From NCBI GenBank assembly GCA_021513695.1, contig CP084166.1, positions 32,001 through 96,000 of the forward strand: 64,000 nt of DNA, given 5' to 3'. Below are positions 1 to 61,494 of the stretch, in pieces (position 1 is the first letter of the stretch; each line of letters begins with the position of its first letter). Source of the stretch: Candidatus Heimdallarchaeum aukensis (lineage in GTDB: Archaea; Asgardarchaeota; Heimdallarchaeia; Heimdallarchaeales; Heimdallarchaeaceae). Made by a program: the position numbers and the translations under genes. Below the pieces are notes generated by a model, which was not told the DNA's origin, made no database searches, and saw only the letters and a program-made list of their open reading frames with translations.

Positions 1-225
1 TTCTCCCTCTCTTACTTTCTCTCGGTTCCTCTTTCACCAGTTTCTTAAGGAAAGGTTCATTAATGCTTATGAATTCTCTTGCTTTGTGGGGGTCTATGAT
101 CTGAAAGTAAGCCATACTTCCGACATAAACCCCCACATTAATAAAAATTAATTTTTGGGCATGCTTCTTAAGTTGATTAATGATCTATCTTAAAATTATT
201 CTTTTTAATTATCTAATTAATAGAA

Positions 226-258: not shown

Positions 259-3147
259 ATGGCTATCAAAACCAAAAAAAACTCCACAAAGAAGAATTTA
301 ATTACTGTTTTTGTAATTTTCTTGGTTTGTTTTAGTTTTATAAATTGTTTAACCTCTAACTTGTTAACTGTAGTAGCTTCAGGAAGCGGAGATTTTCCAC
401 CTCCAAGTAGTGGAGAATGGACAATATCTCAAGAAACAATAGTTAATTCTGAAGTTATTTATATTAATGATTCAGTTTCAATAGAAAGTGGAGGATCTTT
501 AGTATTAGAAAATTGTGTAATAGAAATGAATGGTAATGAAGATGACAAAGCTAATTTTATAGTTAATAATAATGGTAATCTTACAATAATTAATTCTAAA
601 ATAGAAGCTTTTTCTGATTATTCATGGTACATCGAAGCAGAAGAAGGAGCTTCACTTAAAATTACTGACTCAACCCTAATAAACTTCAAAGGAAGCCAAT
701 ATACATCAGTAATTACACTCTATAACAATTATTCTGAAATTACAAACAATAGTATCTCAAACTTCAAATATAAAGCCATTTTTGCTAGATTTACTAGTCA
801 TCATAATAATATTACAAAAAACAAAATAAGTGGAGGGCTTGTTGGTTTTGAAGTAGTCGATGGATGGTACAACGAGATAAATGATAATGAGTTTCACTTA
901 CTATCACAATTTGCGATTGCTATTAATAATGGTAGTTTTTCAAATATTCTTCGAAATAAAATATTTAATGTTTCTTCTATCGCAATCAATTTCCAAAAAT
1001 CAAAGAATGTTTTATGCAATAACAACAATATTTCTACGTCTAAAACTGCAATTGAGTGCTATTCAATCTATAATAGTAGTATCTCTAATAATATGTTCTC
1101 TAATATTCATGATTATTCAATTAGAGTATATACAGGGAATAATGTCACAATATCAAACAATTCAATTGATAATAGCGATTTAGCAAAAGGCATTATTAAT
1201 TCAGCTATTAGCCTGAGTGCGTGTAATAATTTTTCTATTAATGAAAATTCAATAATAAATACCCCAAGAACAGCTCTAGAAATTTTAAGTTCAACAAATT
1301 GTAGAATTTTTAACAATGTTTTTTCCATTAATAATTACTCTATCTTTATCTCTAGTTCTAATTATCTTGAAATTAAAAACAATTTACTATCTTATTCGAA
1401 TGATTATTCTATGTGGTTTATTAAATCAGATTTTTCATTGTTTGAAAACAACACAGTTAATTTTGGTCAATCTTGTGGAATTAGACTAAGTAGCTGTAAC
1501 AATAATTCTATATTAAGGAACATCATATTCAATAATAGTAAATATGGTATCGATATTTCTTCAAGTAATAATAATACGATACTGGAAAATGTTTTTGTTT
1601 TAAACAATAATGGTTCTATTCAAGCTTATGATAATGGATTAAATAATAGCTGGTATAGTAATTTAGAATCTGTTGGTAATTTTTGGAGTGATAATAATGG
1701 ATCATCTTTCTATTTAATAAATGGTGAATCAGGTTCTATGGATATTTTTGCGAATTATTCTGATTACGATAAAGATTTTATTCCTGATTATTATGAACTT
1801 GAAGTTGGTTTAGATATAACAATAAATGATGCTAATGACGACTTAGATGGGGATGGTTTGTCAAACTTCGAAGAATTTACTCTGGGTACTTTTCCTAATG
1901 ATCCTGATAGCGATGATGATGGTTTAATTGATTCAGTAGAAGTAGACTTGAAAACTGATCCTATGTCTAATGATACAGACAATGACAACCTTATTGATGG
2001 GTTAGAAATTCAATATGGATGTGACCCCTTTTCAAATGATACAGACATGGATGGACTAGATGACTGGTCAGAGATATTCTACTACTTCACTGACCCTTTA
2101 GATTATGACACTGATGGTGATGGGTTATCTGACTCTGATGAAGTTTATGCATATAATACAGACCCATTGGACGCTGACACTGATGATGATGGCTTAAATG
2201 ATGTAACTGAAGTACTAGGTTATGGTACTGATCCCAATGATGCAGATACAGATGGAGATGGATTAACAGATTACGAAGAAGTGATTGAATATTTTACTGA
2301 TCCTACGGATGTTGATACTGATGGTGATGGTTTAACAGATTATGAAGAGGTAAAATATTATGGAACAAATCCTAGGAAAGCTGACACTGATGGTGATGGA
2401 ATTTCTGACAATGATGAATTAATTCAAGGAAAAGATCCATTAGTCAATGAGAAACAAAGAAATGTAAGGATAATAATTATTGTATTTTCTGCTTTAGGTT
2501 CTGGTATACTGTTTATAGGATTAACTGTGCTGTTGATACTATTCCTGATAGAAAAGAACAAAAATAAAGAACAAGCATTGTTATCCCTTTTCAAGAAAAA
2601 AATTAGAGAACTAGAAAAGAAAATTAATATTATTGAAACAACAAAAATTGAAGAACTTATGTCTAAGACAGAAGAAAGAGCGAAAATTGATACTTTTTTC
2701 AATGAATTCCTTGAGGTTTTAGTGGACTTCGCAACATATTTTCTGGAAAATGAGGAATTAATTGAGAATAAAAAATGGTTACAAGCCAAAAAGAAGCTAA
2801 ATGAAGAATTAGATAAAGTGAGAGATTGGATTAATAAAAATCTACGTGCTCTAAAGGAATATGATATTTATGACAAACTAGTAAACCAGATAGATGGATT
2901 AGAAAATAAAGAAGAAATTAAGATTAGCAAGTTAGAAGCTTATAAGGAGATTGAAATTGCAAAAGGTATTTTGAGAGAATTCAAAAAAGTAGTAGAGAAA
3001 ACTTCTCCTTTTATCAACAAATTTTCCTATTCTACTTTAACTAAATATTGGGAGATTACAACTGAACTTATATTTGCTAATATGACACAGCTAGAAAAAA
3101 TTGAGGAAAAAATAAAAGATCTACTGGAAAGAGAGAAAACTCTATAA
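259..3147 (+). CDS. Type I membrane surface protein: N-terminal signal/anchor, parallel beta-helix (PbH1/NosD-like) repeats, thrombospondin type-3-like Ca-binding repeats, single TM helix, ~210-aa K/E-rich cytoplasmic coiled-coil tail
   Basis: 962-aa ORF. N-terminal hydrophobic stretch [18 protein letters not shown]. About 500 aa of N/I/S-rich beta-helix repeats ([51 protein letters not shown]). DxDxDGLxDxxE repeats ([36 protein letters not shown]). [29 protein letters not shown] followed by KNKNK and a heptad-like E/K-rich C-terminus. Confidence 0.85.
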
Positions 3148-3149
3148 TC

Positions 3150-3200
3150 TTAATGTTGTTTTTTTCTATTTTTCTTCTTTTACTATTTCTTTTTTAGTTA
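3150..3200. terminator. T-rich bidirectional terminator-like tract between convergent surface-protein genes
   Basis: tgtttttttctatttttcttcttttactatttcttttttag immediately after stop 3147. Archaeal terminators are oligo-T tracts. Confidence 0.4.
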
Positions 3201-3497
3201 AATATTAATTTTAAACTTTGTAACTAGTTTTTCTTGAGAAAGGACTCTTCTCCAGTGAAAAAAACCATCTTCTTGGAATTTGGTCATAATAAAAACATAC
3301 TACCTTTTCGGCAATGGAAATTACCTTTTTTTCCTCTGAAAAGTGGATGCAAATTTATTTATGTGAAGTACTCATTAACCGTCCTAAACGTTTTTTCAAT
3401 GTTCTACCTATGTTTACAAAATATCAGAAATATGTAAAAAGAATAATAAAAGCAAAATAAAAGTAAAAAGAACAAGAAAAAAAGATATAAAAAGATA

Positions 3498-6400
3498 TTA
3501 TTTTCTAGATCTATTTGTTTTTATTGCAAGAATGGTCAAGCCTAAGAGTCCTAGAACGAAATAGAGGAAACTGAATGGATTTTTGGTTGTAGTCTCTTCT
3601 GGATGACTGTTTGAGTCAATAGGGTTAAAACCATTAGACGCTTCGTATCCATCAGTCCAACCATCTCCATCAGTGTCATTATTATGAGGATCAGTATTCC
3701 AATAGAATTCATCTCTATTAGTTAAACCATCTTCATCAGGATCTTCATTAGCATCATCTACTAAAGGATCTAAGTTGTTGTCTACTTCCCAACCATCAGG
3801 CATACCATCATCGTCGGTATCACTGTCAGTAGGGTCGGTGTTATTTGTATATTCTCCTAGATTTGATAAACCATCACTGTCTTTATCATCAGACCCATCA
3901 TCTGTTAATGGGTTTAATTCATATTTTAGTTCCCATCCATCGTCCATTCCATCTCCATCAGTATCTGCGTCAGTGCTTTGAGTGCCTAAAACTACATCTT
4001 CAAGGATATCATCTAAACCGTCTCCATCTATATCAGTTCCACTTATTGGATAAAGATCGACTGAAGAAGCCGTTCCTTGAATATTGGTATAAGTTCCTGT
4101 TGTTCCATTGTAGTCTGACCAATAGTTACCTACTTTTATTTCATCATTATACCATAGATTATTTGACCCATCATCTATAGCTAAAGTAATTTGGTCAAAG
4201 AATAAATAAGAAGCTGAAACGAAATAATTTTGATAGATTAGAGCATTAGAAATCGTAGAAGATAGTGAGATTAAGCAATAAATTTGCCTAATTTCTCCAT
4301 TAATATCAATTATGTCGAATATTTTATTGTACGTAATAATTGCTCCATCAATATCTCCATCTAAACGAATCCCTGCATTAGATACCGTGTTTTCTATGAT
4401 ATTTATAACATTTCTAGTAATCTCGAGATTTTCCCATTGTCCACGAATGTATATTCCTATAGTTCCTCCAGAATTTATTTCATTGTTGTCTATAACAAAA
4501 TTATTTCCTCCATCATTGGCGAAATAAATACCACTGTAAGATGATCCTAGATTTGTTGTTATTTGGTTATATGAGATAGTTATATTGTTGAAGATATTAC
4601 CACTAGCAACATAAATTCCTTTATTACAGTTGCTTATTTGGCTATTAGTTATTATTACATTGTCTACTTTTCTAGCATAATCAGCATAAAGTTCAATTCC
4701 TGAATCTACATTGGAGATGATGGTGTTATTTATTATTAAGCCGTCTGCGGCATAGACATCAATAGCGATTTCTTCATAATTTGATATTATTACATTTTTT
4801 ATTGTAAGATTTTCACTATCAAAAATATATATTGCTTTTGTTGATGTACCATCATGTAAATTTAGGTCTTCAAGAAAAACATTTTTTGAAGTATCAATAC
4901 TTATACTTCCATGTTCAATCTCTGCATTTACAAAAGTAATATTGGTAACTTCGTAAAAGTTTGAGGTACCTGAAAGGGTGTTACTTGTTATTTCGAAATT
5001 ACTAGAATAAGAAATGTAAAACGAGGTATTGGATGACAATATAGCATTATTTGTTATTTCTGTGAACTTTTCTGGCAGATTTGCAATAGTAAAAGCTCTA
5101 TCTACATTTTCAATATAATTGTTGGTAATGTATGTATTTCCTTCCAAAGCGTTACCATAAGAGGAAGTTATTGTGAAAACTTTTTCTGAATCTGAAATAT
5201 CGTTATTATCAAAAGTGACATTACCCACGTAAATTAGATCAAAAGCGGTATTATTAGCGTCTACTATCTCATTATTCACTATTGTAATATTATCATTTAT
5301 TACATAATTTGTGTTATATTTTTTATTTATATCAAGACCGTAAGATACACCTTCTATTATGTTATCTTTAAAAGTCAGAGTAATATTTGCAGTAGTAGAA
5401 TAATCTAAACACATTCCTTTATTTGCTTCATTAATAGTATTTCCTGTCACATTTAATGATTTCGTGTCATATACTATAATTCCATTATAGGCGTTGATAA
5501 ACTCGTTAGAAATTATAATTATTTCTTCATCAGCATATTGATCAATAGGATTCATAATATAAATCGCATTATCGTAAATATTTTCGAAACCGTTACCGGA
5601 AACAGTAATACTTTTTGAATCTTTAATTAAAATTCCTAAATCTGTATTTGATATAGAAAGTGATTTAATGTTAATATTAGTACAATCAATTAGAAATATC
5701 TGACCATAAATGTTAGTGTCAATATTTTTCGTATCGTTGCTAACAAAATAACCTACTTCTTTATTATTTACTTTGTTTCCCTTTACTATTATTGTATTAG
5801 CTTTTTCTTTAAGTGGTGCTAAAAACATCCCATCATTTACTAAAGTATTATTAACAATCTCAATAGTATCTGTTGTTTCCTTAGCAAGATAGATTCCATA
5901 TCCTTTATTTGACTCTATTGAATTATTTGCTATTATTTCATCATTTGATCCACCATTAATTAACAATCCAATATCATCGTTATTATTTATTGAATTATTT
6001 GCAATAGTAATAAAGTCTCCAGTAATATCTATACCTTTATTGTTGAATGAACAGTTATTTCCAGTTATAATTACGTTGTTTGAACCAGTTGAATAAATCC
6101 CTGCGTTACTATTAGATGAACAGGTATTATTTGCAATTATTGCGTTATTAACACCGTAAATGTTTATTCCATTATTACTTCCTGTTATGGTATTATTTAT
6201 TATCTTCTGACTATTAGTCATATAAACATTAATTCCATCTTCATTTCCACTTACAGTGTTTGATTCAATAGTTGCGATTCCATCAGCCACAGATACAATA
6301 TATATTCCCTTTCTAGATGCTTCAATAGAACAATTGACTATCTTAAAGTAAGCTGTTACGCTTAAACTATGAATATAAATTCCATAGTCTGATGATGTCT

Positions 6401-6614
6401 GTATTTTTAAGTTACTGATTATGTAAGGATCGTCTACTGTACCTGCTCCATCAACAACACCATTAGCTGAAGTAAAATCACTATCTGAAGCAATTACTAT
6501 TGGGTCATGTGTTGTGTATATTTTCAGTTTAGACTGTACGTTATTTAAACTTACAATCAATCCACTGCTAATTACAAGCATTATTAAAAACAATGATTTA
6601 TAGTTTTTCATCAA
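3498..6614 (-). CDS. Secreted/anchored surface protein: signal peptide, long parallel beta-helix repeat region, TSP3-like Ca-binding repeats, C-terminal TM + basic tail (PGF/PEF-CTERM-like archaeal sorting anchor)
   Basis: 1038-aa ORF. N-terminus MMKNYKSLFLIMLVISSGLIVSLNNVQS. Beta-helix repeats such as NNTITGSNNGINIYG and NNTCSSNSNAGIYSTGSNNVIITGNNCSFNNKGIDITG. C-terminal DxDxDG repeats (DTDGDGMDDGWE, DSDTDDDGMPDGWE, DTDGDGWTDGYE). Ends NPFSFLYFVLGLLGLTILAIKTNRSRK. Convergent with the 259-3147 gene. Confidence 0.85.
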   Translation of the reverse strand: MMKNYKSLFLIMLVISSGLIVSLNNVQSKLKIYTTHDPIVIASDSDFTSANGVVDGAGTVDDPYIISNLKIQTSSDYGIYIHSLSVTAYFKIVNCSIEASRKGIYIVSVADGIATIESNTVSGNEDGINVYMTNSQKIINNTITGSNNGINIYGVNNAIIANNTCSSNSNAGIYSTGSNNVIITGNNCSFNNKGIDITGDFITIANNSINNNDDIGLLINGGSNDEIIANNSIESNKGYGIYLAKETTDTIEIVNNTLVNDGMFLAPLKEKANTIIVKGNKVNNKEVGYFVSNDTKNIDTNIYGQIFLIDCTNINIKSLSISNTDLGILIKDSKSITVSGNGFENIYDNAIYIMNPIDQYADEEIIIISNEFINAYNGIIVYDTKSLNVTGNTINEANKGMCLDYSTTANITLTFKDNIIEGVSYGLDINKKYNTNYVINDNITIVNNEIVDANNTAFDLIYVGNVTFDNNDISDSEKVFTITSSYGNALEGNTYITNNYIENVDRAFTIANLPEKFTEITNNAILSSNTSFYISYSSNFEITSNTLSGTSNFYEVTNITFVNAEIEHGSISIDTSKNVFLEDLNLHDGTSTKAIYIFDSENLTIKNVIISNYEEIAIDVYAADGLIINNTIISNVDSGIELYADYARKVDNVIITNSQISNCNKGIYVASGNIFNNITISYNQITTNLGSSYSGIYFANDGGNNFVIDNNEINSGGTIGIYIRGQWENLEITRNVINIIENTVSNAGIRLDGDIDGAIITYNKIFDIIDINGEIRQIYCLISLSSTISNALIYQNYFVSASYLFFDQITLAIDDGSNNLWYNDEIKVGNYWSDYNGTTGTYTNIQGTASSVDLYPISGTDIDGDGLDDILEDVVLGTQSTDADTDGDGMDDGWELKYELNPLTDDGSDDKDSDGLSNLGEYTNNTDPTDSDTDDDGMPDGWEVDNNLDPLVDDANEDPDEDGLTNRDEFYWNTDPHNNDTDGDGWTDGYEASNGFNPIDSNSHPEETTTKNPFSFLYFVLGLLGLTILAIKTNRSRK

Positions 6615-12073: not shown

Positions 12074-12928
12074 TTAAAACCAACTTATTACATTGTATAT
12101 TTGTTCTTCTACATCTTTTACTTTATCACTTATTTCTGATACATCATTTATTGAATCGAAGAATTTGTTCAAAATGTTTCTTATTTTTTCTATACCATGT
12201 GCAATATCTTGATATTCAAAAGGATAAGCTAGAGCAACAATACAATAATCCTTACCTTCTAATCTCTTATCTAATTGATTTTTGTCTTTAACAATATATA
12301 GAAGACTTGTAGCATAATAGTCTCTCATTTTAGGGATTCTAACAGGCCCCGAGATTATGGATGAACTTTCAAGTTTATCTATCTCTCCCATTCCAAACAA
12401 AGTGTAAAGCATAACGCCCAAGGATAAAATGACTGTTTCTTTTATGTCTTCATATTCTTCTGGAATTCTGTTTACATATATAGGTTCAGTTCCAGAGGTT
12501 CCAAAACGATAAAAAGCTAAGAATATTTTGTTTTTATCATAACGAGATTTCTTTTTTTTGATGTTTTCAATAATTTCTGGTATTTTACTGAAAAATCTTC
12601 CTCTTTTCACAATATAATCTTGAGCGCCCATTTTCATAGCTTTGACAGCTACTTCTTCAGATCCTTGTCCTGTAATTATAAGGACAGGAATATCAGTTAT
12701 TTTTCTGATCTCTTCCAAAATGTCCAAACCTGTAATGTCTCCTAAAAGATAGTCTAGCAATATTATATCGAAGTCATATTTATATTCTTGAAGAATGTTT
12801 AATGCCTCTTCTTTTGTCTGAGTTATATGTACTTCTACATCATGAAAAGCCTTAATTATATTGATTTTGATAAGAAAGGCTATGTCACTGTCATCCTCCA
12901 CAAGTAGTACACGTAGATCATTAGACAT
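12074..12928 (-). CDS. Response-regulator receiver (REC) domain protein with uncharacterised ~165-aa C-terminal domain
   Basis: Likely ATG start at 12928; the ORF track starts at GTG 12958. N-terminal CheY-like REC: LRVLLVEDDSDIAFLIK...DFDIILLDYLLGDITGLDILEEIRKITDIPVLIITGQGSEEVAVKAMKMGAQDYIVK (phospho-acceptor Asp in LLDY, conserved T and K). The rest has no recognisable output domain. Confidence 0.75.
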   Translation of the reverse strand: MSNDLRVLLVEDDSDIAFLIKINIIKAFHDVEVHITQTKEEALNILQEYKYDFDIILLDYLLGDITGLDILEEIRKITDIPVLIITGQGSEEVAVKAMKMGAQDYIVKRGRFFSKIPEIIENIKKKKSRYDKNKIFLAFYRFGTSGTEPIYVNRIPEEYEDIKETVILSLGVMLYTLFGMGEIDKLESSSIISGPVRIPKMRDYYATSLLYIVKDKNQLDKRLEGKDYCIVALAYPFEYQDIAHGIEKIRNILNKFFDSINDVSEISDKVKDVEEQIYNVISWF

Positions 12929-13094
12929 TGTTTGTTCCTCGAAGTATAAGAAATACACTTTCTTTCCTTTATAATAAAATATAAATTATAAGTTTTAACA
13001 TTTGTGGAATTTCTCATGTATTATGATTCTTTTTTTTGTAGTATGCTTCTAATCTTATGCAAAAGTGAAAGTTTTAATACTTTTTTTATTAATG

Positions 13095-13261: not shown

Positions 13262-14251
13262 TTAATGTTCAATAAATTCTTTCTCGCTTATAACTTTACA
13301 TGTTAATGTTTTAGCAGCAAAAGGTATGAAACTTTTTTCTAGCTCCTTTTTAACCTTTTCAAAAATCAAATAGCGATTTTCTTCACTTGTTAGATCCAAA
13401 GTAATGATTTCAGTTAAATTTTCTATTAATGTAAGCAAAGGACCTTTTTCTATTAGTACATACTCTGTTGTTACTAATAAAGCAATGTTATGATAACTAA
13501 TAAACAGTAGTTTATATTCCTCAAAGTTAATTTCTTCCATTGAACTAAGTTGTTTTTTGTTTGTTGAATTTAGCCACTTATTCTCATAAGCACTAATTAT
13601 GTTCTTAACTTTTTCTCTGGTTCTTGTATTATCGTGTATATGAAGATTAACTCCGTCTTTTTTAATGAAAATATCTACCGATAAAATGTTTGGCATTAAT
13701 CCTGTTTTTTTACTAACCAACTTGCTTATTAACCAATTCATCGCATCGCTTATGTATTCGCCTGTTTTGACTGAAATGAAAAAGAATCGAAAACTCATCT
13801 GACTTTCAATTGAAATTAATTTGTTAAGTTCAAATCCTTTAACAATTTCTTCAATAACTCTTTCTTTTTCTGTAATTAAGTCCATCTTATTACCTAGAAA
13901 AAGCACTGGTATATCTTTGTTTTTTATCCATTCTAAAATAGTATAGAACCATTCTTTACTTTCTGGTAAACTTTCTAAATTTGAAGCGTCAAAAATGAAA
14001 ATTAAAGCAGAGGAAAGATTAATGTAATTTTTCCAAATGTGCTTTCTGAATGCTTGGTGTCCCCCCATATCCCAAATTTGAAGGGGAAAACCTTGGTACT
14101 CGGTAAATTCTACATCAACACCTAAAGTCGGAGGAGAAGAAACAAAGGTTCCCGATAGTAACCTTTGGGTAAAGCTAGATTTTCCGGCTTGTGGAAGGCC
14201 AGTTATAGCAATAGAGAATCTTGTCATTTTTGAGTTCACTTCAATTAGCAC
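13262..14251 (-). CDS. Arf/Sar-family-like small GTPase with ~150-aa C-terminal extension of unknown function
   Basis: 329-aa ORF. P-loop GLPQAGKSS. PTLGVDVEFTEY resembles Arf PTIGFNVETVEY. Switch II WDMGGHQ (Arf WDVGGQ) followed by RKHIWKNY (Arf RPLWRHY). IFIFDASN (Arf IFVVDSND). NKMD (NKxD). C-terminal G5-like SVKTGEYISDAMNWLISKL (Arf ATSGDGLYEGLDWL). Confidence 0.8.
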   Translation of the reverse strand: MLIEVNSKMTRFSIAITGLPQAGKSSFTQRLLSGTFVSSPPTLGVDVEFTEYQGFPLQIWDMGGHQAFRKHIWKNYINLSSALIFIFDASNLESLPESKEWFYTILEWIKNKDIPVLFLGNKMDLITEKERVIEEIVKGFELNKLISIESQMSFRFFFISVKTGEYISDAMNWLISKLVSKKTGLMPNILSVDIFIKKDGVNLHIHDNTRTREKVKNIISAYENKWLNSTNKKQLSSMEEINFEEYKLLFISYHNIALLVTTEYVLIEKGPLLTLIENLTEIITLDLTSEENRYLIFEKVKKELEKSFIPFAAKTLTCKVISEKEFIEH

Positions 14252-34618: not shown

Positions 34619-34709
34619 TTATCGTATAGTACTCTTTAGAGTTCTGGGATTGGAATTGGGGCTATTATTTCCTGGAGTAAGTAATTGAAAATTGAAAAGA
34701 AGTGTAAAA

Positions 34710-37700
34710 ATGAAAAAAAGTAAAATTAAAGTTATTTCTATTATCGCTATTTTTCTTCTCATCTTGAACGTCTCGACGATATACGTTCAAGGTCAGATGG
34801 TAGGTAATGAAACTAAATTAATGATGACTGGAAATCCTACAGAAGTTTATGAAGATCAGATAGCGATTCTGTATGATCCATTTAATGATATGACAAGAGA
34901 ACTAGCAAATTCGATTTATGAGACTGTTCATATGTTTTATTCTAACGTGAAAATGGTCAAAGTTTTCAATTTAGATTCATTTAACAGAGCTTTTTATGAT
35001 GATGATTGGATTAAAATCTATGTTTTCGACTCTGACTTAAAAGGAATAAAATTTGCTGGTTGGACAATGTCATGGAGAAAACTAACTGGATACTACAATG
35101 TTTTCAAAGATACAAGGCACATTGGAGTTTATGGAAACTCATACAAGATGGGTCCATATCTTAAGACTGAAAACTGTTATATAGAAAATACAGAGATTCT
35201 AGATTATCGTATTGCTTACATTCATGTATTGTGGTCATTATATGATATTTTTACAGAAAAAGAAGATGAAATTCTTCAACAAATAGGAGAAAATTTCAAA
35301 TTAATAGCAATTAAATATTTTGGAGATTCATTTGAAGAAATAATGTCTGCCGAGTTTGATCCACAAGGATTAGGTGTTGTTGACCCAAAAAAGGCAGAAG
35401 AAAGATTACAAGATTCAATGGACCAATATCCAAAGAGATTAAATAAAGTTAATCCATATACGGGTGAGTTAGTTGATCCAACAGCAGAGATTGAAGGATT
35501 TAATCCTGTAATGGATATTAAACCCAAAGCAGCGATAGATGAAGATGACATTGTTTTAGGTGAGTTTCCGTTCTTATCTTCGATTCCTGGAGCTGCAGGT
35601 GACGTTATTAAAATAATTTTAGAGTTTATAGGTGTCGAGATACCAGAAGGTTTATTGACTGTAGGTAAAGAATATGGGGGGCAGATCGTCGCAATAATTA
35701 AAGAGATACCTAAAATTATTGGTTTCTTTAAGGATCCAAGTGCAAGTAGTGCTATTGAACTATTTTTTGATGTAGCAAAAGAAATGTTTCCCAGTATAGA
35801 AGAATATAAGCCCTACTTCGATATAGTAGTGAAAGCCCTATTTTCGATAAAAGATATTGCTTCAGGGGATCTTACTCCTTTAATTGATATATCAATGGAA
35901 CTTCTACGATTTATAATTCCTGATAGTGTAGGAGATTTTGTTGACGATGTTTTTGATGCTTTAAACATATCAAGTGCCCTTTCTGATATTATTAGTGGAG
36001 TTACTAATGTTGGTGATTATCTTAAGAGTTTTCTCAATAGGCAACTAATTACAAATTTAATGAAGAAATTTATTGAACAGACTTTAGATCTAGGGGGAGA
36101 ATCCCAAAAATGGATAGATACCATTTCAGAGATTATTATGATTGCTTATGAAATTGCCAGCACTCGAGATATGGATCACATAATAGCGGATGTCTTTCCA
36201 CGATTAGGAAAATTAGTTTACAAGAACATCTTAGATATGACCTATGATGAAAATGTAGAAAATACCTTCAAAGGAATTGCTGTTGCAATTAAGATGGGTT
36301 TTGGAGCTGCTGGAATCATTGATGTTAATCTTAAGGATTCATTTATGGATTTAATAGGCTTCTTCTTCCCTGACCTCGTTGAGACAGTTAATGATGTTAA
36401 ATTCTTTGTTTCAAGTATTAGGTCTCAAATTGATTCCTTTATGGATCTTGTTAAAGATGTTTCAGAAGGTAAAAATCTAGATGTAAACAACGTTCATGAC
36501 CAAATTATATCTTTAATTACTGAGCTTAGTTCATTATCAGGTCATTCTCTCGATGCAAATAAGATAAATGTACTCTCTCAAGCTGTTTTGATGGCTTTAG
36601 CTCTAATAAATGGTGATTTTGAAGCTTTAAGTGATACTAGCTGCCTAACAAGTCTAGTTGATGGATTTCTAGAACATTTTATTGGACTAGAAGAAGGTCC
36701 TAGAGAAATTGTACAAAAGGCAATAGAAGCTGGAGCAGCTATTTTACCTTTCATTACTGGGAAAAAGAGTTTGAAAAAATATATTATGGGAAGACTTGAA
36801 GATTTTGCTGACAAATTCAAGAATCCTGGAGAAATAATTGAAAAGGTTCTTTATTATTTCCTAAGCAAGTACAACGCAAGTACTCAACTTTACCAACTTA
36901 TTGGAAAAATTGTAGGAATAGTCATTGACATCTTTTCTGGAGGATTTGACTTTTCTGTTCAAAATGTTATTCAGACAATAATCTCAATGGCAGTTGTAGT
37001 TTTGAACATGTTAGATGTCAATATTCCGTTAGAAGCAATGTACAAGAGTTTTCAACTTCTATGGGAAGAGGGGCCAGAATTTTCCAATGTTGTAAAAGTA
37101 GTTCAAGATATTATGGGATTACTTGGAGGAAGCATTGACCCAACAATTAAAACTACTGTAGAAACAGTTCTTACTTTTCTAGGAGGAGCAAAGAATATCT
37201 TCAAAGATGGAATAAAATGGATAATGAACCAACTTGTAGGTTGGGCAGCAGGGCAGATTGCTAATTTATTAAATATGCTTACTGATAAATTAAATGAACT
37301 GTTCCAATCTCTTGGTGATTTGGTAAGTTATGATTCTGAATTCCCAATTGGTTTCGGAAGTTTTACTGCCTTCCAGATGCGAGTATTCTTCTCTTTAAGT
37401 CCTGGATTCGAAATTAACCCTGAACCAATTCAAGAGCTCATTATGAGTATGATTTTTGATGGGTCAAAGGTTTTTGATCTCGATAATATCGGAGAATTGT
37501 TTAAGCTTATCTTAAAATCAATTTCAATTATTCCTATTTTCAAAGCTGGACTTGAAATCAAAGCAGGAACGTCTGGAAAGAACGACTTAATGAAGATGCT
37601 CCTTGATTCTCTTGGTCTGGAACTTTCATTCTCTGGCTCTGCAGGACTAACACTGCAATTAATGAAGATTTCTAATGGTAAAATAAGTACTAGTGATTTC

Positions 37701-40700
37701 TTCAAAGTAATAGAATTCTTCTTTAAATTCCAGATATCAATAGCTAAAACATTCCCATTAGCAGAATTTCTAGGTCCAGGAGGAGCAGTTTTAGCTAAAG
37801 TTGCAGAATTCTTAGGTTTAGGTGGAATTTACCTAAAGATAGAGTTCTTTATAGCAATAGAAATTGTTAAACGATGTGAGACACCTACTCAGAAGGCTGC
37901 AGATATTTTAACAATTGTAATAGGAATAGGTGTTTCTGTAATTATTGATATCGACTTGGTAATTGTTGGAATAAAAATAACTATAGGTTTTGTAGTGACG
38001 CTGACGTTTATCCAGGACTTCTTGGCGGACGCACCGCTGCAAGTGATACTCGAGATAGAGTTCACTGTAGCGGTGAAACTGACGTTCTTGTTCGTCGACT
38101 GGACAGGAACAGCGTCATGGGGTCCAGATCCAATTTATCTGGCAGGAGGACCGGATGATGAAAGCACAAAAGACGAAATGAGCGGCTTGGACGCAGATGG
38201 GGATGGGTTACCTGATTCATATGAGTTAGGAGTTCCAGGAATGAAAGTAGACAGCGATGACAGTGATGGAGACGGTTTATCAGACCAATTCGAAGTGAAA
38301 ACGAGTAAAACAGACCCTATCACTGCAGATTCTGACGATGATGGTCTAGATGATTACATGGAATATGAAGTCTTAAAGACCAATCCTCTACAAGTAGATA
38401 GTGACTATGATGGTTTAACTGACTATGAAGAAGTTGTTATCTATGGAACTGATCCTAATGCACAAGATACAGATGGTGATCAATTAGATGACTATTACGA
38501 AGTAAATACTGCATGGAATATCACTGGAATAACTCCAAGTGTAAGATTTGTTACAATTGGGGGAGTAGAGTATAAAGATCATACTGATCCTCTTAATCCT
38601 GATACTGATGGTGATGGACTTCTAGATGGACAAGAAGGAGAATTTGGGGCTTATTATGGACCAGAATTGTATAACACTTCAGACCCAAGTTGGGATCCCT
38701 ATCCAATATTCTACAATCAAGGATATACTCATCCATTAGATAATGATACCGATGATGATTCTTATAAACAATTAGCAAATGGAACTATAGCTCCAGATCG
38801 TCAGTTCTTAATCTATATGTCTGATAAGGTAGAAATAGATGGACAATGGGTTATTTTCATTGAAGATGATGAATTAATGGGTAGAGTAGTTAGAACTAAC
38901 CCAATTAACCCTGATACTGATGGTGATTCAGCAGTAATGGATAAATCTTGGAGAGGTGATGGGGCTCCTCTTGACTTTTTCCTGAAGTCTGATGGTTACG
39001 AACTCTGGTTAGATCCGCCGACAGACCCGAATGACGCGGATATGGACGATGATGGATTAATTGACGGTTTAGAGGGTTGGGGTAATAAGATCAGTAATCA
39101 TACTGATCCTCGTAATCCTGATACTGATGGTGATGGACTTGGAGACCTGCAAGATATTCTACTCGGTTCGGATCCTTTGAACCCTGATAGTGATATGGAT
39201 GGAATTCTAGATGGTGAGGAGTTCTTCAAGTATGGAACTAACCCCGCTTATGAAGATACAGATCATGATGGGCTTTTGGATGGTGAGGAAGTTTATCTAT
39301 TCCACACAAACCCTCTGGCGGTAGATAGCGATGGAGATGGGATAGATGATGGAATGGAGGTATTAGTTTATGGTTCAGACCCGATGGATGAAGATATGGA
39401 TAACGACGGTCTAACAGACTGGGAAGAGATTTTCTACTACTTTACCAATCCTAGAGATTACGACTCAGATGATGATGGTCTAAGTGATGCTATGGAGGTT
39501 TTAGATGAATATGCTATATACACTGACCCATTGAATTGGGACTCTGATAATGATTCAATCACATATCCTAATGAAAACGGAAATTATACTTTCCCACTTT
39601 CTGATGGAGATGAAGTACTAATTTACGGAACTGACCCATTGACAAGCGATACTGATGGAGATGGATTGCACGATTCGTTTGAACTATATCTTGGTTCAGG
39701 TTTAATTTACAACTTTACTCCTGTACCTTTGGATCCGTTATCTAACGATACTGATGGAGATGGAATATATGATGCAAATGAATACCACATTGCAAATGTC
39801 TCTAACATCATTTATCCTTATGTTAGTTTTATCATCACCCAACCTTACAATACTTCTCCAGTAGATCCAGACTCTGATGATGACGGGATTATCGATGGAG
39901 ACGAAGTCTATGTATATGGAACTATGCCAGATATGAAAGATACAGATGGAGATGGACTAGACGATTGGAGTGAACTTAATATTATGTATACTAACCCTCT
40001 GAGTTCGGATACGGACAATGACTATCTGACAGATTGGGAAGAATGGTATGCGGGTTTTGAACATCCAGGATATCTACTTGATCCTAACGACCCTGATTAT
40101 GATAATGATATGCTGCCAGATGGGCCAGAGTTACTACTTTACGGTTCTAATCCTAATAATGCCTATGAGATTGATCCAAGTTCAGGAAAAGTCGATGGTC
40201 TGTTGATGGATTGGGACCATGATGGTCTAGAAGATGGTTTAGAGTTCTTTGTATACAACACTAGTTATGTAGCAGGAGGAGGAGTCACCCAGCCAGATAG
40301 TGATAGAGATGGTTTGATGGATGGTGCAGAAGTATATGTTCATGGTACAGTCCCCACGAATTGGGATACTGACAATGATACATATAGTGATGGATTAGAA
40401 GTGATGTTAGGACTAGATCCTCTTACATATACAACAGAAGAGGAATTTATAGCAGCTCTATCTGCAAATCAAGATATGCTAGAAGCAGGAGTACTAGTTA
40501 TCTCACCAATAGAAGGTGGAATTTACTCTCCTTCTAACTATACTTTCATCCTCTATAACGTGACAGAACTACTGGGCGTACAATATCAAATGAAGAAGAA
40601 CAAACAAGATTTCGGAGACAACATGAGTATGTACTATGATGATGTTTCAAGGACGTGGATAACTCAAGGAGATTATATTGGACCTGGAGATTATATCGTC

Positions 40701-49843: not shown

Positions 49844-50818
49844 ATGAGCGTAAAAATAACCTCAGAATATATAGAGCTGCTGAATAAAGCAGTTGCAAGA
49901 GAATTACAAGTTTCTGTTCAATATTTTCTACAACACGCTAAAATTGAAAAAATAATGAGAAAAGTTAAAGCTGAAAATATTTTACTTGATTCCACAACTT
50001 ACGACCAGATAGGTCAGATTTTAAAGAAACTAGCAATAGAAGAAATGAAACATGCAGGATCAATCGTTGAGAGAATTTATTATTTGGGAGGCAAGGCAAC
50101 AACTAAAGCTTTTAAACCTAAAATAGGAGAAAATATGCAAGAATTTATGAAATATGGCTTTGAAGCTGAAGAAGAAGCTTTAGAATTATATCGTGAAATA
50201 ATCCGCGAGGCAGGTAAATTAGGAGATTATGATACTAAAGAACTCTTTAGGAAAATCTATAGAGAGGAAGAAGAACATCTTTATACGTTTCAAGAATATT
50301 TAACAATTAATATTAGTGAACCTGGAGAGACAGCACCAAAGTCCGAATGGAGAAAAGTTTTTGACGACGAATACTTTGCTCTATTAAACAAAGCCTTAGC
50401 TTCAGAACTGTCTGCTATTATTCAGTACATAACCCAACATGAAAAAGCGAGTGCAATCAATCTTAGGAAAAAAGAAACGCCTTTAGAAGTAATTACCAAT
50501 ACAAACAAAGCGCAAGTTATTAGTAACATGTTAAAGAAAATCTTTATGCAAGAAATGGAACATTACGAAAAGATTTCTGAAAGAATATACATGTTGGATG
50601 GAGAATGTACATTGGATCCTGATCCTTTGCCAAAAGTTGGTGAGAGCGTAGAAGATTTCTTGAAACTGGGTCATCAAGCTGAAGATGAAGCTATTGTTCT
50701 TTATCGTAAAATCATAGAAGAAGCTACTAAGAAGGGAGATATAACTACTAAGAAGATGTTTGAAGAAATATTGATGGAAGAAGAAGAACATTACTGGATG
50801 TTTGATGACTACTTGTAA
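49844..50818 (+). CDS. Tandem-duplicated ferritin-like (bacterioferritin/rubrerythrin-fold) diiron protein
   Basis: 324-aa ORF with two ~150-aa halves. Each carries ferroxidase-type E...QY/E..H ligand motifs (ELQVSVQYFLQH + EEMKHAGSIVERIYYLGG; ELSAIIQYITQH + QEMEHYEKISERIYMLDG) and the conserved E-x-x-H second pair (EEEHLYTFQEYL; EEEHYWMFDDYL). Confidence 0.7.
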   Translation: MSVKITSEYIELLNKAVARELQVSVQYFLQHAKIEKIMRKVKAENILLDSTTYDQIGQILKKLAIEEMKHAGSIVERIYYLGGKATTKAFKPKIGENMQEFMKYGFEAEEEALELYREIIREAGKLGDYDTKELFRKIYREEEEHLYTFQEYLTINISEPGETAPKSEWRKVFDDEYFALLNKALASELSAIIQYITQHEKASAINLRKKETPLEVITNTNKAQVISNMLKKIFMQEMEHYEKISERIYMLDGECTLDPDPLPKVGESVEDFLKLGHQAEDEAIVLYRKIIEEATKKGDITTKKMFEEILMEEEEHYWMFDDYL

Positions 50819-56912: not shown

Positions 56913-58769
56913 ATGAATAAAATAAATATTATATTAACCTATTTAGTGGTTTCTAGTTTTCTTATCCTCTCTGGATCTGTTTATGCTGCCGATGTTTCTG
57001 GTTCAACAATTGAAGCTTCACCTTCTGATATTTATGAGTATCAGATAACTAGTATTACTGTTACTTCAAAGAATGGAGTAGGTACTGCACTTGGAGGAGT
57101 AACTGTAAATATCTCTGCTCAAGAAGGTTCCTTTGTTGAAAATGAGATGAAGTACATAATCTTAACTACAAATGACAATGGTATTGCTTCCGCTGATTGG
57201 AAAGCTCCTGAAGCTAAGAGTGCAGTAGAAGCTAAAGAAGTTACAATAACTGCTGTATTCACTTCTGGTAGTGATACAGCTACAAAAGAATTAAATGTAA
57301 CTGTTCATCCTCTTTCTTTTGATACAAGTACTATAACTATAAGCCCAGATCCAGTTTACGAGACACAGAATTCAACTATTGAGATAACTGCAAAAGGTAC
57401 ATACGGAACCATTGCAGAAGCAAATGTTCATCTAACTTGTGACGATGGAGTGTTTCCAGATTCTGATACTTTCGAGATAGATGTCCAAACAGATTCAGAT
57501 GGAAAAGTTCAAGTTATCTGGAATGCTGATTTAACTACATTAGTTTCTGAACTAAACTATGTTAACTTTACTGCTACAGTAACTTATAGCGGTTCTACAG
57601 CCACTAAAGACTTGACTGGAACTATTTATGTTAATGAACTAGATTTGAGTAGTTCAACAATGGTTGCGTCAAGTACGGATGTAGGAGGAGGGACACATGT
57701 TTCTATTGTTGTTACTGCAGAGGGAGCTTTAGGAGTGATTTCTAACGCAAGAGTAGAGTTAGACGCTCTTGATGGTAAATTCTCCAATAACGAACAAGAT
57801 ATTACAGGATATACTAACTCTTCAGGAATGTATGAGACAGAATGGATAGCTCCTGATGTTTCAAATGCTATTGACATTATAATCTCAGGAACAGTTTCTG
57901 TTGATAACACTCTCGCAACTAAGGATCTAGATGATATAACAATTACTGTTAATCCTATAGTTCACAACTTCACAATAAGTTTAGATGCAAATGCTACAGA
58001 AATAACAGCTGGAGAACCTGTAGAATTAACTGTAACTTTGACTAATGAATTAGGTTATACTGTAGAAGATGCAGAGATTACTTTCAATGCTATGGAAGGA
58101 GAATTTGTAGGTTTTGATGCTCTAACTGCTAAGATTAACAGTTCATCTGAAGGAATTGCTTCTGTAGTATGGAATACAACTGATTTATCTCCACCAATAC
58201 CTAATGGACAGGATTATCCTATAACTATTAATATAGTTAAAGAATTCTATAATTCTGAAGAAGATTCAATAGATATACATGTTAATCCTATTATCCTTAA
58301 ACTAAGCTCTAGCACTACTCCAGATAAGACAACTATAACTCAAGGAGAAAATGTTACATTTACTGTTTTTGTTAGTGCTGGAGAACAAGGAGTAGAAGGA
58401 GCAACTGTAACTATAACCGCTCTAGCAGGTACTTTTGCCAGCAGTGGGAATCAAATTACTTCACTAGAAACAAATTCCACTGGATATGTTACTTTTGTAT
58501 GGATAACAGAAGATATGACAGTAACAACTGCAAAGAACTATACATTTACTATCGATGCAGCCCTTCCAGGATATGATTCATCAGAACAAGAAACAGTTAC
58601 TATATTAGTTAATCCAGTTGATACAGGAGGAGCAGAACCTACACAAACTACTACTCCTACAGGAGGATTGTCTACAATGACTAAACTAGGTATCCTTCTT
58701 GGAGCACTTGGAGGAGTGGTTCTATTAGGAGGTTTAGGTTACTTCTTAATTAGTAGACGAGGTATATAA
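56913..58769 (+). CDS. Secreted surface protein with about 5-6 tandem Ig-like (Big/invasin-like) domains, T/P-rich stalk and C-terminal TM anchor
   Basis: 618-aa ORF. Signal peptide INIILTYLVVSSFLILSGSVYAADVSG. Repeated ~100-aa beta-sandwich modules (TKDLTGTIYVN..., TKDLDDITITVNP..., SIDIHVNPI...). C-terminus PTQTTTPTGGLSTMTKLGILLGALGGVVLLGGLGYFLISRRGI. Stop is 1 nt before the next gene. Confidence 0.8.
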   Translation: MNKINIILTYLVVSSFLILSGSVYAADVSGSTIEASPSDIYEYQITSITVTSKNGVGTALGGVTVNISAQEGSFVENEMKYIILTTNDNGIASADWKAPEAKSAVEAKEVTITAVFTSGSDTATKELNVTVHPLSFDTSTITISPDPVYETQNSTIEITAKGTYGTIAEANVHLTCDDGVFPDSDTFEIDVQTDSDGKVQVIWNADLTTLVSELNYVNFTATVTYSGSTATKDLTGTIYVNELDLSSSTMVASSTDVGGGTHVSIVVTAEGALGVISNARVELDALDGKFSNNEQDITGYTNSSGMYETEWIAPDVSNAIDIIISGTVSVDNTLATKDLDDITITVNPIVHNFTISLDANATEITAGEPVELTVTLTNELGYTVEDAEITFNAMEGEFVGFDALTAKINSSSEGIASVVWNTTDLSPPIPNGQDYPITINIVKEFYNSEEDSIDIHVNPIILKLSSSTTPDKTTITQGENVTFTVFVSAGEQGVEGATVTITALAGTFASSGNQITSLETNSTGYVTFVWITEDMTVTTAKNYTFTIDAALPGYDSSEQETVTILVNPVDTGGAEPTQTTTPTGGLSTMTKLGILLGALGGVVLLGGLGYFLISRRGI

Positions 58770-58770
58770 T

Positions 58771-61494
58771 ATGTTTAGGAAGAAGAGAGGAGTTTCTCCT
58801 GTAATTGCAGTTGTTCTGATACTTGGTCTTACCTTAGCTGCAACTGCAATTGTTTTTCTAGTTGTACTTCCAATGGTAAATCAAAGAAATGCTCCTGAGT
58901 TATACATTGATGAGACTTCAGCACCTTTGTTTATGGATTACGATAATGATGGAAAATGTGACTATATAACTGTCCAAGTTGGAAATATCGGTGGGAGTGC
59001 GTTTAATGTTACTAATATAACGATCGTAGCTTCCAAAGATAGTTCGTCCAACTTCTACACTTGGGAGTTAATGGATAATGTAAATGGGACAATAGGTGTA
59101 AATGATCGTGTTCTATTAAAGATGAGGGCTGCTGTAGATGATACTGATGAAATAGATGATGGTTCAAGTCTAATTTTAACACTAATAAATGACCAATATA
59201 TTGTAGGTCTAGAACTTGGGACAATTACTGTTGAACAAGGAGAACCACTATCTATTGAATTTACTGATTCTTCAGGAGATCCTGTTGTTGGTTCTAATAT
59301 TTATTTCTACTATTCCACAGGAGAATTTGCTTACACAGGGGAACCAACATCTGTTAGTGGTGTTTCAAACACTTATCTATTTCCAGGGACTTACTATGCA
59401 AAAGCTCAATCTGGAATGCAATTCTACACCACAGATGTTTTTATTCATCCAGGAACACCCCAATTACATTTAGAGATGTCTGGAGGAACTTTAACTGTTA
59501 AAGTTAAATCAGGTACAACACCTTTAAGTGGTGTAAGAACTTATTTGTATGATACCTATAGCCATTATTTGAATAAATACTCTGATACTAATGTTGATGG
59601 ACTAGCTACTTATTCTCTTGATGATGGAGTGTATAAGATCAGAGCAGATGTTTCTGGAATAGTCTATTATTCAGAAAATATAAACTTCCCAAATACAACT
59701 TATATAGAAATTGACACAGGAGGAGGTACTGTTTATGCTCACGTAATTGATGGAGGAAATAATCCAATAGTCAACACTCGTGTCTATCTTTTCACCTCAA
59801 GTGGAAGCTACACTGGTAAATACGGTAACACCAATGCTACAGGGTATGCTGAATTTGCTGCAGTTTCAGGAGGAACTAATTATAAGTTTAGAGTAGATTA
59901 CTTGGCTTATAGAATCTGGAGTCAAACCTTTGGAGCTTCAGATGGGGCAGTTATTGATGTTAATGTAGGAGGAGGAACAATATATGTCAATGTAACTGAT
60001 GGTGACGGCAATCCAATAAAGAACACTCGTACATATCTCTTTACTTCAAGCGGAAGTTATACTGGTAAATACTCGAATACAAATACAAGTGGAATAGCCA
60101 CTTACAGCTCTATAGCTGCTGGAGATTACAAGATTAGAATTGACTATCTTGCTCAAAGATTCTGGAGCCCAGTTTTCACTGCTTCAAATGGATTAATAGT
60201 TAATGCATCTATAGGAGGAGGAACACTTTATGGAAATATTACTGTGGCTGGAAATGCTTTAGTTAACACTCGTGTTTATCTTTTCACTTCAAGTGGAAGT
60301 TATACCGGTAAATATGGAAATACAAATGCTTCTGGAATAGTAACATTTGTTGGAATAGGCACTTCTAACTATAAGTTAAGGGTAGATTACCAAGCAGATC
60401 GTCATTGGTCAGATGTTTTCTATTTCAATGAAACAATGGTTTATCACTTTGAACTAGGTGGAGGAACAGTTTATGCCAATGTCACTGCTGGAGGGGTACC
60501 AGTTGTCAATACTAGAGTCTATGTATTCACTGATAGCGGAAGTTATACAGGAACTTATGCAAACACTAATGCTTCAGGAATAGCAACATTCAACACATTA
60601 AGCAGTGGAGACTACAAATTCAGAGTTGACTACCTCGCAAAAAGATTCTGGAGTGATGTATTCACTGCCAGTGATGGTTTAGTTGTAGATGTTGATTTAG
60701 GTGGAGGAACAATATATGTCCATTTGACTAATACCTATGGTGTAGATATTGCTAATGTACGTCTCTATCTCTTCACTTCAAGTGGAAGCTACACAGGTAA
60801 GTATACAAACACAAATGCTACGGGTTGGGGAGTTTTTGCAGGAATAGGAGAATCAGACTATAAAGTACGTGCAGACTATCTAGCAAAAAGATACTGGTCA
60901 AACGTATTTACTGCAACCGACGGATTAAATGTAGATTTCAATATAGGTGGAGGAATAGTTTGGTTACATGTGTTTGACGGAAGTGGGACAAATATAAGCG
61001 GACCAAGAGCTTATCTCTTTACTGAGAGCGGAAGTTATACTGGAATCTACAGAAACCTGGATGCTAATGGATATCTGAACTTTACTGGAATAGGTGATGG
61101 TAACTTCAAATGGAGAGTCGACTATCTTGCAAAAAGATTCTGGTCTGATGTTTTCTCTGCGACAAACGGTACAACTTTAGAATTCAACATCGGTGGAGGA
61201 ACAATATACGTTCATCTAACAGTTAATGGTGCTGATGTTAATAACGGAAGAATATACTTGTTTACAGATACTGGTAGTTATACTGGAAAATATGCAAATA
61301 CAAACTCTACAGGTTGGGCAGTGTTCTATGGAATTGGAGCAGGAGATTATAAGTTGAGATATGATTATGATGGAACACGTTATTGGAAGAATTTCTCCGC
61401 AGATGCAGATTTACAGGTAGGGTTTGCTATTGTAACCACAATGACCCTTTCTGTATTAACAGTTCAACCTTCTAAGTCAAAAGAAAATTATTAA
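58771..61494 (+). CDS. Large (907 aa) protein with archaeal class III (type IV pilin-like) signal peptide and 8 tandem ~83-aa beta-sandwich (carboxypeptidase-regulatory-domain-like) repeats
   Basis: N-terminus MFRKKRGVSPVIAVVLILGLTLAATAIVFLVVLPMV matches the archaeal pilin/class III signal pattern ([KR]-G-[VA]-S-P-V-I-A + hydrophobic). Eight repeats such as GGGTIYVNVTDGDGNPIKNTRTYLFTSSGSYTGKYSNTNTSGIATYSSIAAGDYKIRIDYLAQRFWSPVFTASNGLIVNASI. Confidence 0.85.
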   Translation: MFRKKRGVSPVIAVVLILGLTLAATAIVFLVVLPMVNQRNAPELYIDETSAPLFMDYDNDGKCDYITVQVGNIGGSAFNVTNITIVASKDSSSNFYTWELMDNVNGTIGVNDRVLLKMRAAVDDTDEIDDGSSLILTLINDQYIVGLELGTITVEQGEPLSIEFTDSSGDPVVGSNIYFYYSTGEFAYTGEPTSVSGVSNTYLFPGTYYAKAQSGMQFYTTDVFIHPGTPQLHLEMSGGTLTVKVKSGTTPLSGVRTYLYDTYSHYLNKYSDTNVDGLATYSLDDGVYKIRADVSGIVYYSENINFPNTTYIEIDTGGGTVYAHVIDGGNNPIVNTRVYLFTSSGSYTGKYGNTNATGYAEFAAVSGGTNYKFRVDYLAYRIWSQTFGASDGAVIDVNVGGGTIYVNVTDGDGNPIKNTRTYLFTSSGSYTGKYSNTNTSGIATYSSIAAGDYKIRIDYLAQRFWSPVFTASNGLIVNASIGGGTLYGNITVAGNALVNTRVYLFTSSGSYTGKYGNTNASGIVTFVGIGTSNYKLRVDYQADRHWSDVFYFNETMVYHFELGGGTVYANVTAGGVPVVNTRVYVFTDSGSYTGTYANTNASGIATFNTLSSGDYKFRVDYLAKRFWSDVFTASDGLVVDVDLGGGTIYVHLTNTYGVDIANVRLYLFTSSGSYTGKYTNTNATGWGVFAGIGESDYKVRADYLAKRYWSNVFTATDGLNVDFNIGGGIVWLHVFDGSGTNISGPRAYLFTESGSYTGIYRNLDANGYLNFTGIGDGNFKWRVDYLAKRFWSDVFSATNGTTLEFNIGGGTIYVHLTVNGADVNNGRIYLFTDTGSYTGKYANTNSTGWAVFYGIGAGDYKLRYDYDGTRYWKNFSADADLQVGFAIVTTMTLSVLTVQPSKSKENY
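59482..61440 (+). repeat. Eight near-tandem coding repeats, unit 243-249 nt, encoding the ~83-aa modules of the pilin-signal protein
   Basis: Recurrent unit starts (ggaggagga/ggtggagga...ac..t.tatg..) at 59482, 59719, 59968, 60214, 60457, 60700, 60946 and 61192. Spacings are 237/249/246/243/243/246/246 nt. Confidence 0.85.

Follow-up and report, generated by a model that had tools for sequence, protein, structure and literature searches.

Several described systems come close to parts of the protein considered here, a surface protein encoded by the gene at 259–3147 in a stretch of 64,000 nucleotides (nt) from Candidatus Heimdallarchaeum aukensis (contig CP084166.1, positions 32,001 to 96,000; the whole stretch is called the window below, and positions refer to it unless stated). 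Integrin alpha subunits have the bitopic topology predicted here, with extracellular Ca-binding repeats and a tail which is presumed to dock partners; integrin tails are short (tens of residues), largely unstructured, and carry NPxY-type motifs. CglD and MtsD of Myxococcus, bacterial TSP3-repeat adhesins, also bear Ca-binding TSP3 arrays in surface adhesion proteins, and are outer-membrane lipoproteins or secreted, and are not known to have a transmembrane (TM) helix or a cytoplasmic domain. The NosD/PbH1 beta-helix surface proteins, including the paralogue encoded at 3498–6614, have the same head fold, TSP3 stalk, signal peptide and TM anchor. For the tail, the closest known systems include elongated antiparallel helical bundles (the STAT coiled-coil domain, the exocyst/Munc13 CATCHR rods and syntaxin Habc) and the methyl-accepting chemotaxis proteins, which are membrane proteins with a cytoplasmic antiparallel coiled-coil module, a hairpin of ~150 residues.

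The window protein differs from its paralogue in running on for 198 residues after its TM helix (aa 765–962), and in this tail K and E make up 34% of residues, compared with 8.6% for the ectodomain. The tail is a conserved, very rare and lineage-restricted domain, always found just inside the membrane behind a TSP3 stalk. Although a single-pass surface adhesin with a cytoplasmic domain is a known kind of protein, the family of the tail domain is undescribed: searches of the literature brought up no previous account of these proteins, and the Heimdallarchaeum genome paper is without mention of them. The explanation we favour, and to which we give about an even chance, is that of a surface protein with a folded cytoplasmic docking or clustering domain, the window copy being a reduced, accessory member. 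The features of the gene are as follows.

259–3147, plus strand: complete gene for the 962-aa, probably bitopic surface protein (open reading frame (ORF) list, ATG start; stop codon included).
259–390, plus strand: predicted signal peptide or N-terminal anchor, aa 1–44, with a K-rich n-region (+5) and uncharged aa 13–44 (hydropathy, flank charges).
430–1760, plus strand: right-handed parallel beta-helix ectodomain, about aa 58–500, boundaries approximate (Pfam Beta_helix and NosD, NCBIfam para_beta_helix).
1762–2460, plus strand: TSP3 stalk of ~11 Ca-binding repeats, aa 502–734 (Pfam TSP3_bac; DxDxDxxxD motifs).
2470–2550, plus strand: single TM helix, aa 738–764 (Kyte–Doolittle maximum 2.72; uncharged stretch 738–764).
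2551–2700, plus strand: juxtamembrane K/E-rich tail helix, aa 765–814, poorly conserved between clades (alignment; AlphaFold2 helix at tail residues 2–30).
2701–3144, plus strand: conserved core of the tail domain, aa 815–962 (phmmer coverage, invariant columns, tblastn, and omega, the ratio dN/dS of nonsynonymous to synonymous substitution rates).

Searches with the tail covered ~15 billion proteins overall, and within this space the family amounts to a handful of sequences, all Heimdallarchaeum-like. The tail alone had no Pfam match with an E value below 0.07 and no PDB sequence match; sequence, profile and fold searches gave no partner or function for it. A word-indexed search of 5.8 billion clusters returned only two near-identical sequences, and an exhaustive phmmer search of 1.84 billion representatives only P0001 and three remote matches, P0003 to P0005 (E 4e-5 to 2.5e-4, with 24–31% identity over ~150 residues, at tail residues ~44–196). 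Both long matches, P0003 and P0005, run from TSP3 repeats through one TM helix into the tail-homologous region, while P0004 is a fragment. Widening by word-indexed profile searches gained only P0006; of two metagenome scans for the family, one was without matches and the other returned only P0004's own contig. Across 185,579 species, each represented by one genome, Ca. H. endolithica was the sole one in which the tail domain was found. Three of its loci carry it, namely the orthologue of the window gene and two intact giants, L009 (2162 aa) and L010 (2071 aa). Each giant has a signal peptide, a large ectodomain, a very long TSP3 array, a TM helix, the tail and a further extension which is discussed below. 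In tblastn their tails, encoded with the extension at L009 7929–8879 and L010 7860–8750, match the window at 2566–3126, with E values of 5e-15 (L009) and 3e-10 (L010).

The family falls into three clades, 22–36% identical in the tail core. An invariant motif, T..FI[DN][EK]F[ST][FY]S.L..YW, lies at the turn between the last two helices; the window copy reads T..FI.KFSYS.L..YW (tail residues 151–167, nt 3001–3051), and further conserved core residues are F60, K80, L87, D88, R91 and D105. We provisionally define a 'Heimdallarchaeum TSP3-protein cytoplasmic tail' family by a ~150-residue core that immediately follows the TM helix in a protein with a TSP3 stalk, together with the invariant motif and the conserved residues. 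The window protein belongs to it and has kept all of the invariant residues. The cassette of TSP3 stalk, TM helix and tail is reused with different ectodomains, either a beta-helix or an FG-GAP/PQQ propeller with LamG. The gene of P0005 (on L002) has a beta-helix head, in that of P0003 (on L005) FG-GAP propellers and a LamG domain precede a gap in the scaffold, and L010 has a PQQ/propeller domain (Pfam); in the L009 ectodomain Pfam matched nothing besides TSP3.

Both paralogue lineages show purifying selection on the tail core, with an omega of 0.35 for L009 versus L002 (p 3e-4) and of 0.31 for L010 versus L005 (p 1e-4). These values are similar to that of the TSP3 stalk (0.34) and looser than those of housekeeping neighbours (0.05–0.13). 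The extension module, with an omega of ~0.2 in the two paralogue lineages, is more strongly constrained than the core.

One of these genes carries a break of its own. At ~1169–1180 of L002, a run of ~11 T causes a frameshift, which is also present in L003 and L004 (three samples). As a result, a gene with the full order of signal peptide, beta-helix, TSP3 array, TM helix, tail and extension is broken into two ORFs, one of 292 aa and one of 716 aa, the latter being P0005. Slipped-strand phase variation, a true pseudogene and an assembly error are all conceivable here.

The extracellular part of the 962-aa window protein is assigned by profile matches. The head matches Beta_helix (PF13229, E 2e-30, 105.9 bits against a cut-off of 25.9) and NosD (PF05048, E 1e-20, 74.1 bits against 23.6) in Pfam and para_beta_helix in NCBIfam (28.7 against 19.45), and is thus a beta-helix. 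The stalk matches TSP3_bac (PF18884, E 4e-36, 122.9 bits against 25), with 11 DxDxDxxxD Ca-binding motifs between aa 502 and 717. The NCBIfam matches to CglD and MtsD are partial and confined to the repeats, at 55 bits versus 400 and 43 bits versus 800, far under the cut-offs. The resemblance to integrin alpha is also limited. Beta-propellers of the FG-GAP or PQQ type are present in the relatives on L005 and L010, though not in the window protein, but the tails are unrelated in sequence or fold, the window head is a beta-helix and not a propeller, and there is no evidence here for a heterodimer or for cytoskeletal adaptors. The window protein has no FG-GAP match (Pfam), and its tail has no NPxY motif.

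The paralogue and two giant genes further along the window serve as comparators, and the flanking features are as follows.

3148–3497, no strand: intergenic region between convergent genes, with T-rich tracts directly 3' of the stop codon; no extension module remnant was found there (tblastn).
3498–6614, minus strand: tail-less paralogue, a beta-helix/TSP3 surface protein (Pfam) which ends 7 residues past its TM helix.

The convergent paralogue lies 350 bp beyond the stop of our gene. The original prediction held that the paralogue and the giants stop right after the membrane, and this is borne out: the giants at 34692–40913 and 40913–48922 end ~19 and ~5 residues past their TM helices, so that the comparators stop 5–19 residues past the membrane whereas the window protein continues for 198. 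Most TSP3 surface proteins of the same genomes also have a TM anchor with a tail of only 5–19 residues. As side observations on the giants (plus strand; 2073 and 2669 aa), their ORFs share a single base, TSP3 repeats are present in the first and FG-GAP repeats in the second, and both have a signal peptide, a C-terminal TM anchor and a short basic tail.

The predicted layout, with beta-helix and Ca repeats outside, one TM helix and a helical tail inside, is supported by Pfam, by hydropathy and by the flank charges of homologues. Hydropathy finds exactly two hydrophobic segments in the 962-aa protein, the N-terminal one at aa 13–44 and the TM helix at 738–764. The net charge is +2 on each side of this helix, which makes the positive-inside rule indecisive for the window protein alone. 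In the tail-family relatives, the 15 residues past the TM helix have a net charge of +6 to +9, compared with −2 to +1 before it, and the family tail is therefore placed in the cytoplasm. Taken with the signal peptide and the single internal TM helix, this inner-flank charge of the homologues supports a cytoplasmic tail, as predicted from sequence, for the window protein too. The inverted topology, with the tail outside, was rejected on account of the signal peptide, the Ca-binding nature of the ectodomain and the strong positive charge that homologues carry on the inner flank. An archaeosortase C-terminal signal (PGF-CTERM and similar) was also considered. No CTERM model of NCBIfam matched the 962-aa protein, the paralogue or the giants, and such a signal is impossible in the window protein because its TM helix lies 198 residues from the C-terminus.

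The nature of the tail itself is less straightforward. The original prediction described ~210 residues rich in K and E with heptad character, forming a long coiled coil; the composition and the periodicity stand, while the length comes to 198 aa. Were the tail a low-complexity stretch without coiled-coil propensity, its entropy would be expected to be low. An entropy scan rejects this, with a mean 12-residue entropy of 2.79 bits, the SEG trigger reached in 4 of 187 sliding windows, and 18 residue types present. Hydrophobic positions recur with a period of 3.50–3.56 residues in four of the five long predicted helices. By a home-made heuristic heptad score, the tail has a median of 7.6, compared with 4.9 ± 0.8 for shuffles and 12.4 for tropomyosin, and the best register shifts repeatedly.

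AlphaFold2 modelling of the tail without an alignment was too poor for use (predicted local distance difference test, pLDDT, 46.6). With a six-sequence alignment the model reached a pLDDT of 64.5 and a predicted template modelling score of 0.52, and was 92% helical, with helices at tail residues 2–30, 33–66, 74–103, 106–114, 120–158 and 161–197 and short turns between them. The five long helices have 29–39 residues each. A canonical long coiled coil would keep an uninterrupted register over ~100 or more residues without breakers, and the longest uninterrupted helix in this model of moderate quality has 39. The coiled coil envisaged originally is taken here as a long dimeric or trimeric rod which would couple the surface coat to the cytoskeleton (e.g. 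actin-like filaments) or to a signalling scaffold. Turns, one Gly and one Pro break the helices, the register shifts, and the heptad score is far under that of tropomyosin. The best-conserved element is an aromatic helix–turn–helix motif and not a coiled-coil seam. There is no match to a known cytoskeleton- or signalling-related domain, and the orthologue is pseudogenised in the sister species, as described below. We therefore regard the rod as unlikely. The model suggests instead that the tail is a folded, elongated antiparallel bundle of heptad-periodic helices, to which the turns and the conserved aromatic motif also point. Unlike the long hairpin of methyl-accepting chemotaxis proteins, its helices are of 29–39 residues, and neither MCPsignal, HAMP, HisKA nor any other signalling domain was found in the tail (no match with E < 0.07) or across the family members.

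The full-length members go further than the window protein. In the L009- and L010-type clades, the core is followed by ~100 more residues, ending in AIDSLLxx[YF][DE]xW..GKK. From its sequence pattern and from PCI/Paf67 matches at E ~0.04, this extension may be winged-helix-like. It also occurs in soluble proteins: a soluble, all-helical 291-aa protein (L010 9657–10532, minus strand) ends in the extension module (hhalign probability 92%), and so does P0006 (146 aa). The 291-aa gene, on the strand opposite to that of the L010 giant, follows it downstream at a distance of ~900 bp, with a gene for a CheY-like receiver (L010 9227–9625, plus strand) in between. Its product is a candidate cytoplasmic partner or competitor of the tail. 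It was also considered as a free copy of the tail core, and this was rejected, as only the extension aligns (hhalign). The C-terminal peptide of the 291-aa protein is AIDSLLEDYEKW..GKKV, as in the tails of the giants.

The window protein stops at ...DLLEREKTL, exactly where the extension would start, and is thus not of the full-length form. Tblastn with extension-bearing tails found no remnant in 3148–3497 and no copy elsewhere in the window. The H. endolithica orthologue ends at the same place as the window protein, and the short form is therefore older than the species split.

The missing module bears on a second explanation, in which the tail is purely structural and self-associates to cluster or stabilise the protein, with no separate partner and no information transmitted. 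The window member does lack the module that soluble proteins carry, its helices are amphipathic and heptad-periodic, the juxtamembrane segment is basic, as is typical of membrane-proximal anchoring, and no signalling domain was detected by Pfam. However, tails of 5–19 residues suffice in most TSP3 surface proteins, so anchoring needs no 200 residues, and the invariant aromatic motif, together with a downstream module conserved in two clades, points to specific recognition. A purely structural role is accordingly possible, although we hold it to be doubtful.

The favoured explanation, a folded docking or clustering domain, would work as follows. A Sec-type signal peptide would export the beta-helix head, probably a glycan- or surface-binding adhesin module, on its stalk of ~11 Ca-binding TSP3 repeats, while the one TM helix would anchor the protein and leave 198 residues in the cytoplasm. 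There, beneath the membrane, the tail domain would serve for docking or clustering, and would hold surface adhesins together or attach them to a cytoplasmic partner. The partner-binding end of the full-length clades would be their winged-helix-like module with the C-terminal peptide, a reading which is made because soluble proteins also carry the extension. The window protein would be accessory and reduced, with anchoring and perhaps self-association kept and distal coupling lost.

Comparison with related genomes shows how well the window copy has been maintained. The window (GC ~30%) is syntenic with Ca. Heimdallarchaeum endolithica PR6 (CP084167.1) at 91–93% nucleotide identity, and two metagenome contigs of the Joint Genome Institute, L006 and L007, hold intact 962-aa orthologues at 98.3% nt identity. 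Four lesions make the H. endolithica orthologue a pseudogene. Codon 268 has changed from TAT to TAA and codon 609 from TAC to TAG, 1 bp is deleted at gene nt 1032, and ~1.8 kb with TnpB-like ORFs is inserted at codon ~597. The tail-less paralogue is intact in H. endolithica, with an omega of 0.23. As the 962-aa frame is kept in the window, L006 and L007 but lost in H. endolithica, the gene is therefore accessory. Given this pseudogene and the missing module, the coupling role of the window member looks dispensable or reduced.

The insertion in the pseudogene occupies L001 7946–9765 (equivalent to window ~2046–2049) and has a PF07282 match; its termini are imperfect inverted repeats, TTTACTTTTTGCGAA / TTCGCAAAAAGTAAA, and the junctions show a short overlap, ATG(G). 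A second insertion sequence (IS), with an rve integrase (L001 11142–12080), lies between the two convergent surface-protein genes in H. endolithica. Upstream, a ~2.5-kb segment with a class I/II aminotransferase and a ~300-aa gene is present in H. endolithica, L006 and L007 and missing from the window (window 1–206 versus L001 3375–6097). This difference and the two IS insertions indicate that the neighbourhood is structurally unstable.

Such decay raises the further explanation that the window-type clade lost the distal module by truncation, that what remains of the tail is non-functional, and that the gene is heading for loss. The extension and any remnant of it are indeed absent, the H. endolithica orthologue has its four lesions in an IS-rich neighbourhood, and between intact copies the tail differs by four nonsynonymous changes against one synonymous. 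Set against this, the frame is intact in three independent sequences (window, L006 and L007), all invariant family residues are kept, and the whole gene has an omega of 0.23 between intact copies (window versus L006, p 5e-7). The short form also predates the H. endolithica split and has yet kept its frame, with the window tail 90% identical to that of H. endolithica at an omega of 0.36 (13 synonymous and 21 nonsynonymous differences, p 0.0066). Decay of a functionless remnant thus appears very unlikely. In the comparison of the window with L006, dS in the tail (2551–3144) is 0.009, 5–10 times below the rest of the gene (0.044–0.09), which may reflect a recent recombination tract or chance.

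Some of these same data also tell against a conserved docking or clustering domain. Of the two branches behind the omega of 0.36 relative to H. endolithica, one is functional and the other is that of a pseudogene, and the window and L006 tails have only 5 differences, 4 of them nonsynonymous, so that dN/dS is powerless here and recent constraint is unsupported. In addition, the family is tiny, which makes the alignment shallow, and the extension is called winged-helix-like from its sequence pattern and the weak PCI/Paf67 matches. For the family, a receptor or linker is plausible, since a conserved domain, purifying selection and three clades fit the layout that the original prediction proposed. 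The link it drew to a cytoskeleton or signalling scaffold has not been sustained, as the searches returned no partner.

The window contains other genes of note. A 329-aa Arf-family small GTPase (13262–14251, minus strand; Arf E 2e-28) has a ~150-aa C-terminal extension; it is a eukaryotic-signature protein, consistent with the Asgard origin, and its gene adjoins a response-regulator gene (12074–12958). At 49844–50818 (plus strand), a 324-aa protein is a double ferritin, with two ferritin-like domains. A 2026 bioRxiv preprint is reported to describe an Asgard protein of double-ferritin fold that forms a dodecamer. At 58771–61494 (plus strand), a 907-aa protein has an archaeal type IV pilin N-terminus followed by immunoglobulin (Ig)-like and CarboxypepD_reg domains, and is unusually large for a pilin-like protein. 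Just upstream lies a 618-aa ORF (56913–58769) with no Pfam match.

Heimdallarchaeia are the archaea closest to eukaryotes, and a bolder extension of the docking explanation can be made for the family as a whole. The tail could form the inner end of a linker for outside-in adhesion in archaea, a functional analogue of integrin–adaptor coupling which arose independently of or before eukaryotes. Giant Ca-dependent adhesins, whose TSP3 stalks bear FG-GAP propeller or beta-helix heads, would be coupled across the single membrane to partners in the cytoplasm through the helical docking domain and the winged-helix/peptide module shared with soluble proteins, and the window protein would be a reduced variant, possibly regulatory or decoy-like. 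We think it improbable that the whole of this proposal will hold.

Asgard archaea have no ordered S-layer, and their surface proteins are thought to mediate cell–cell contacts relevant to eukaryogenesis; cultured Lokiarchaea lack an S-layer, and their single membrane displays complex surface proteins (PMC9834061). Against this background, what makes the present finding valuable is chiefly the family with its full-length members, and not the truncated, dispensable-looking window copy. A conserved inner domain on surface proteins, with a module shared with soluble proteins, offers concrete baits for testing transmembrane coupling in Heimdallarchaeia.

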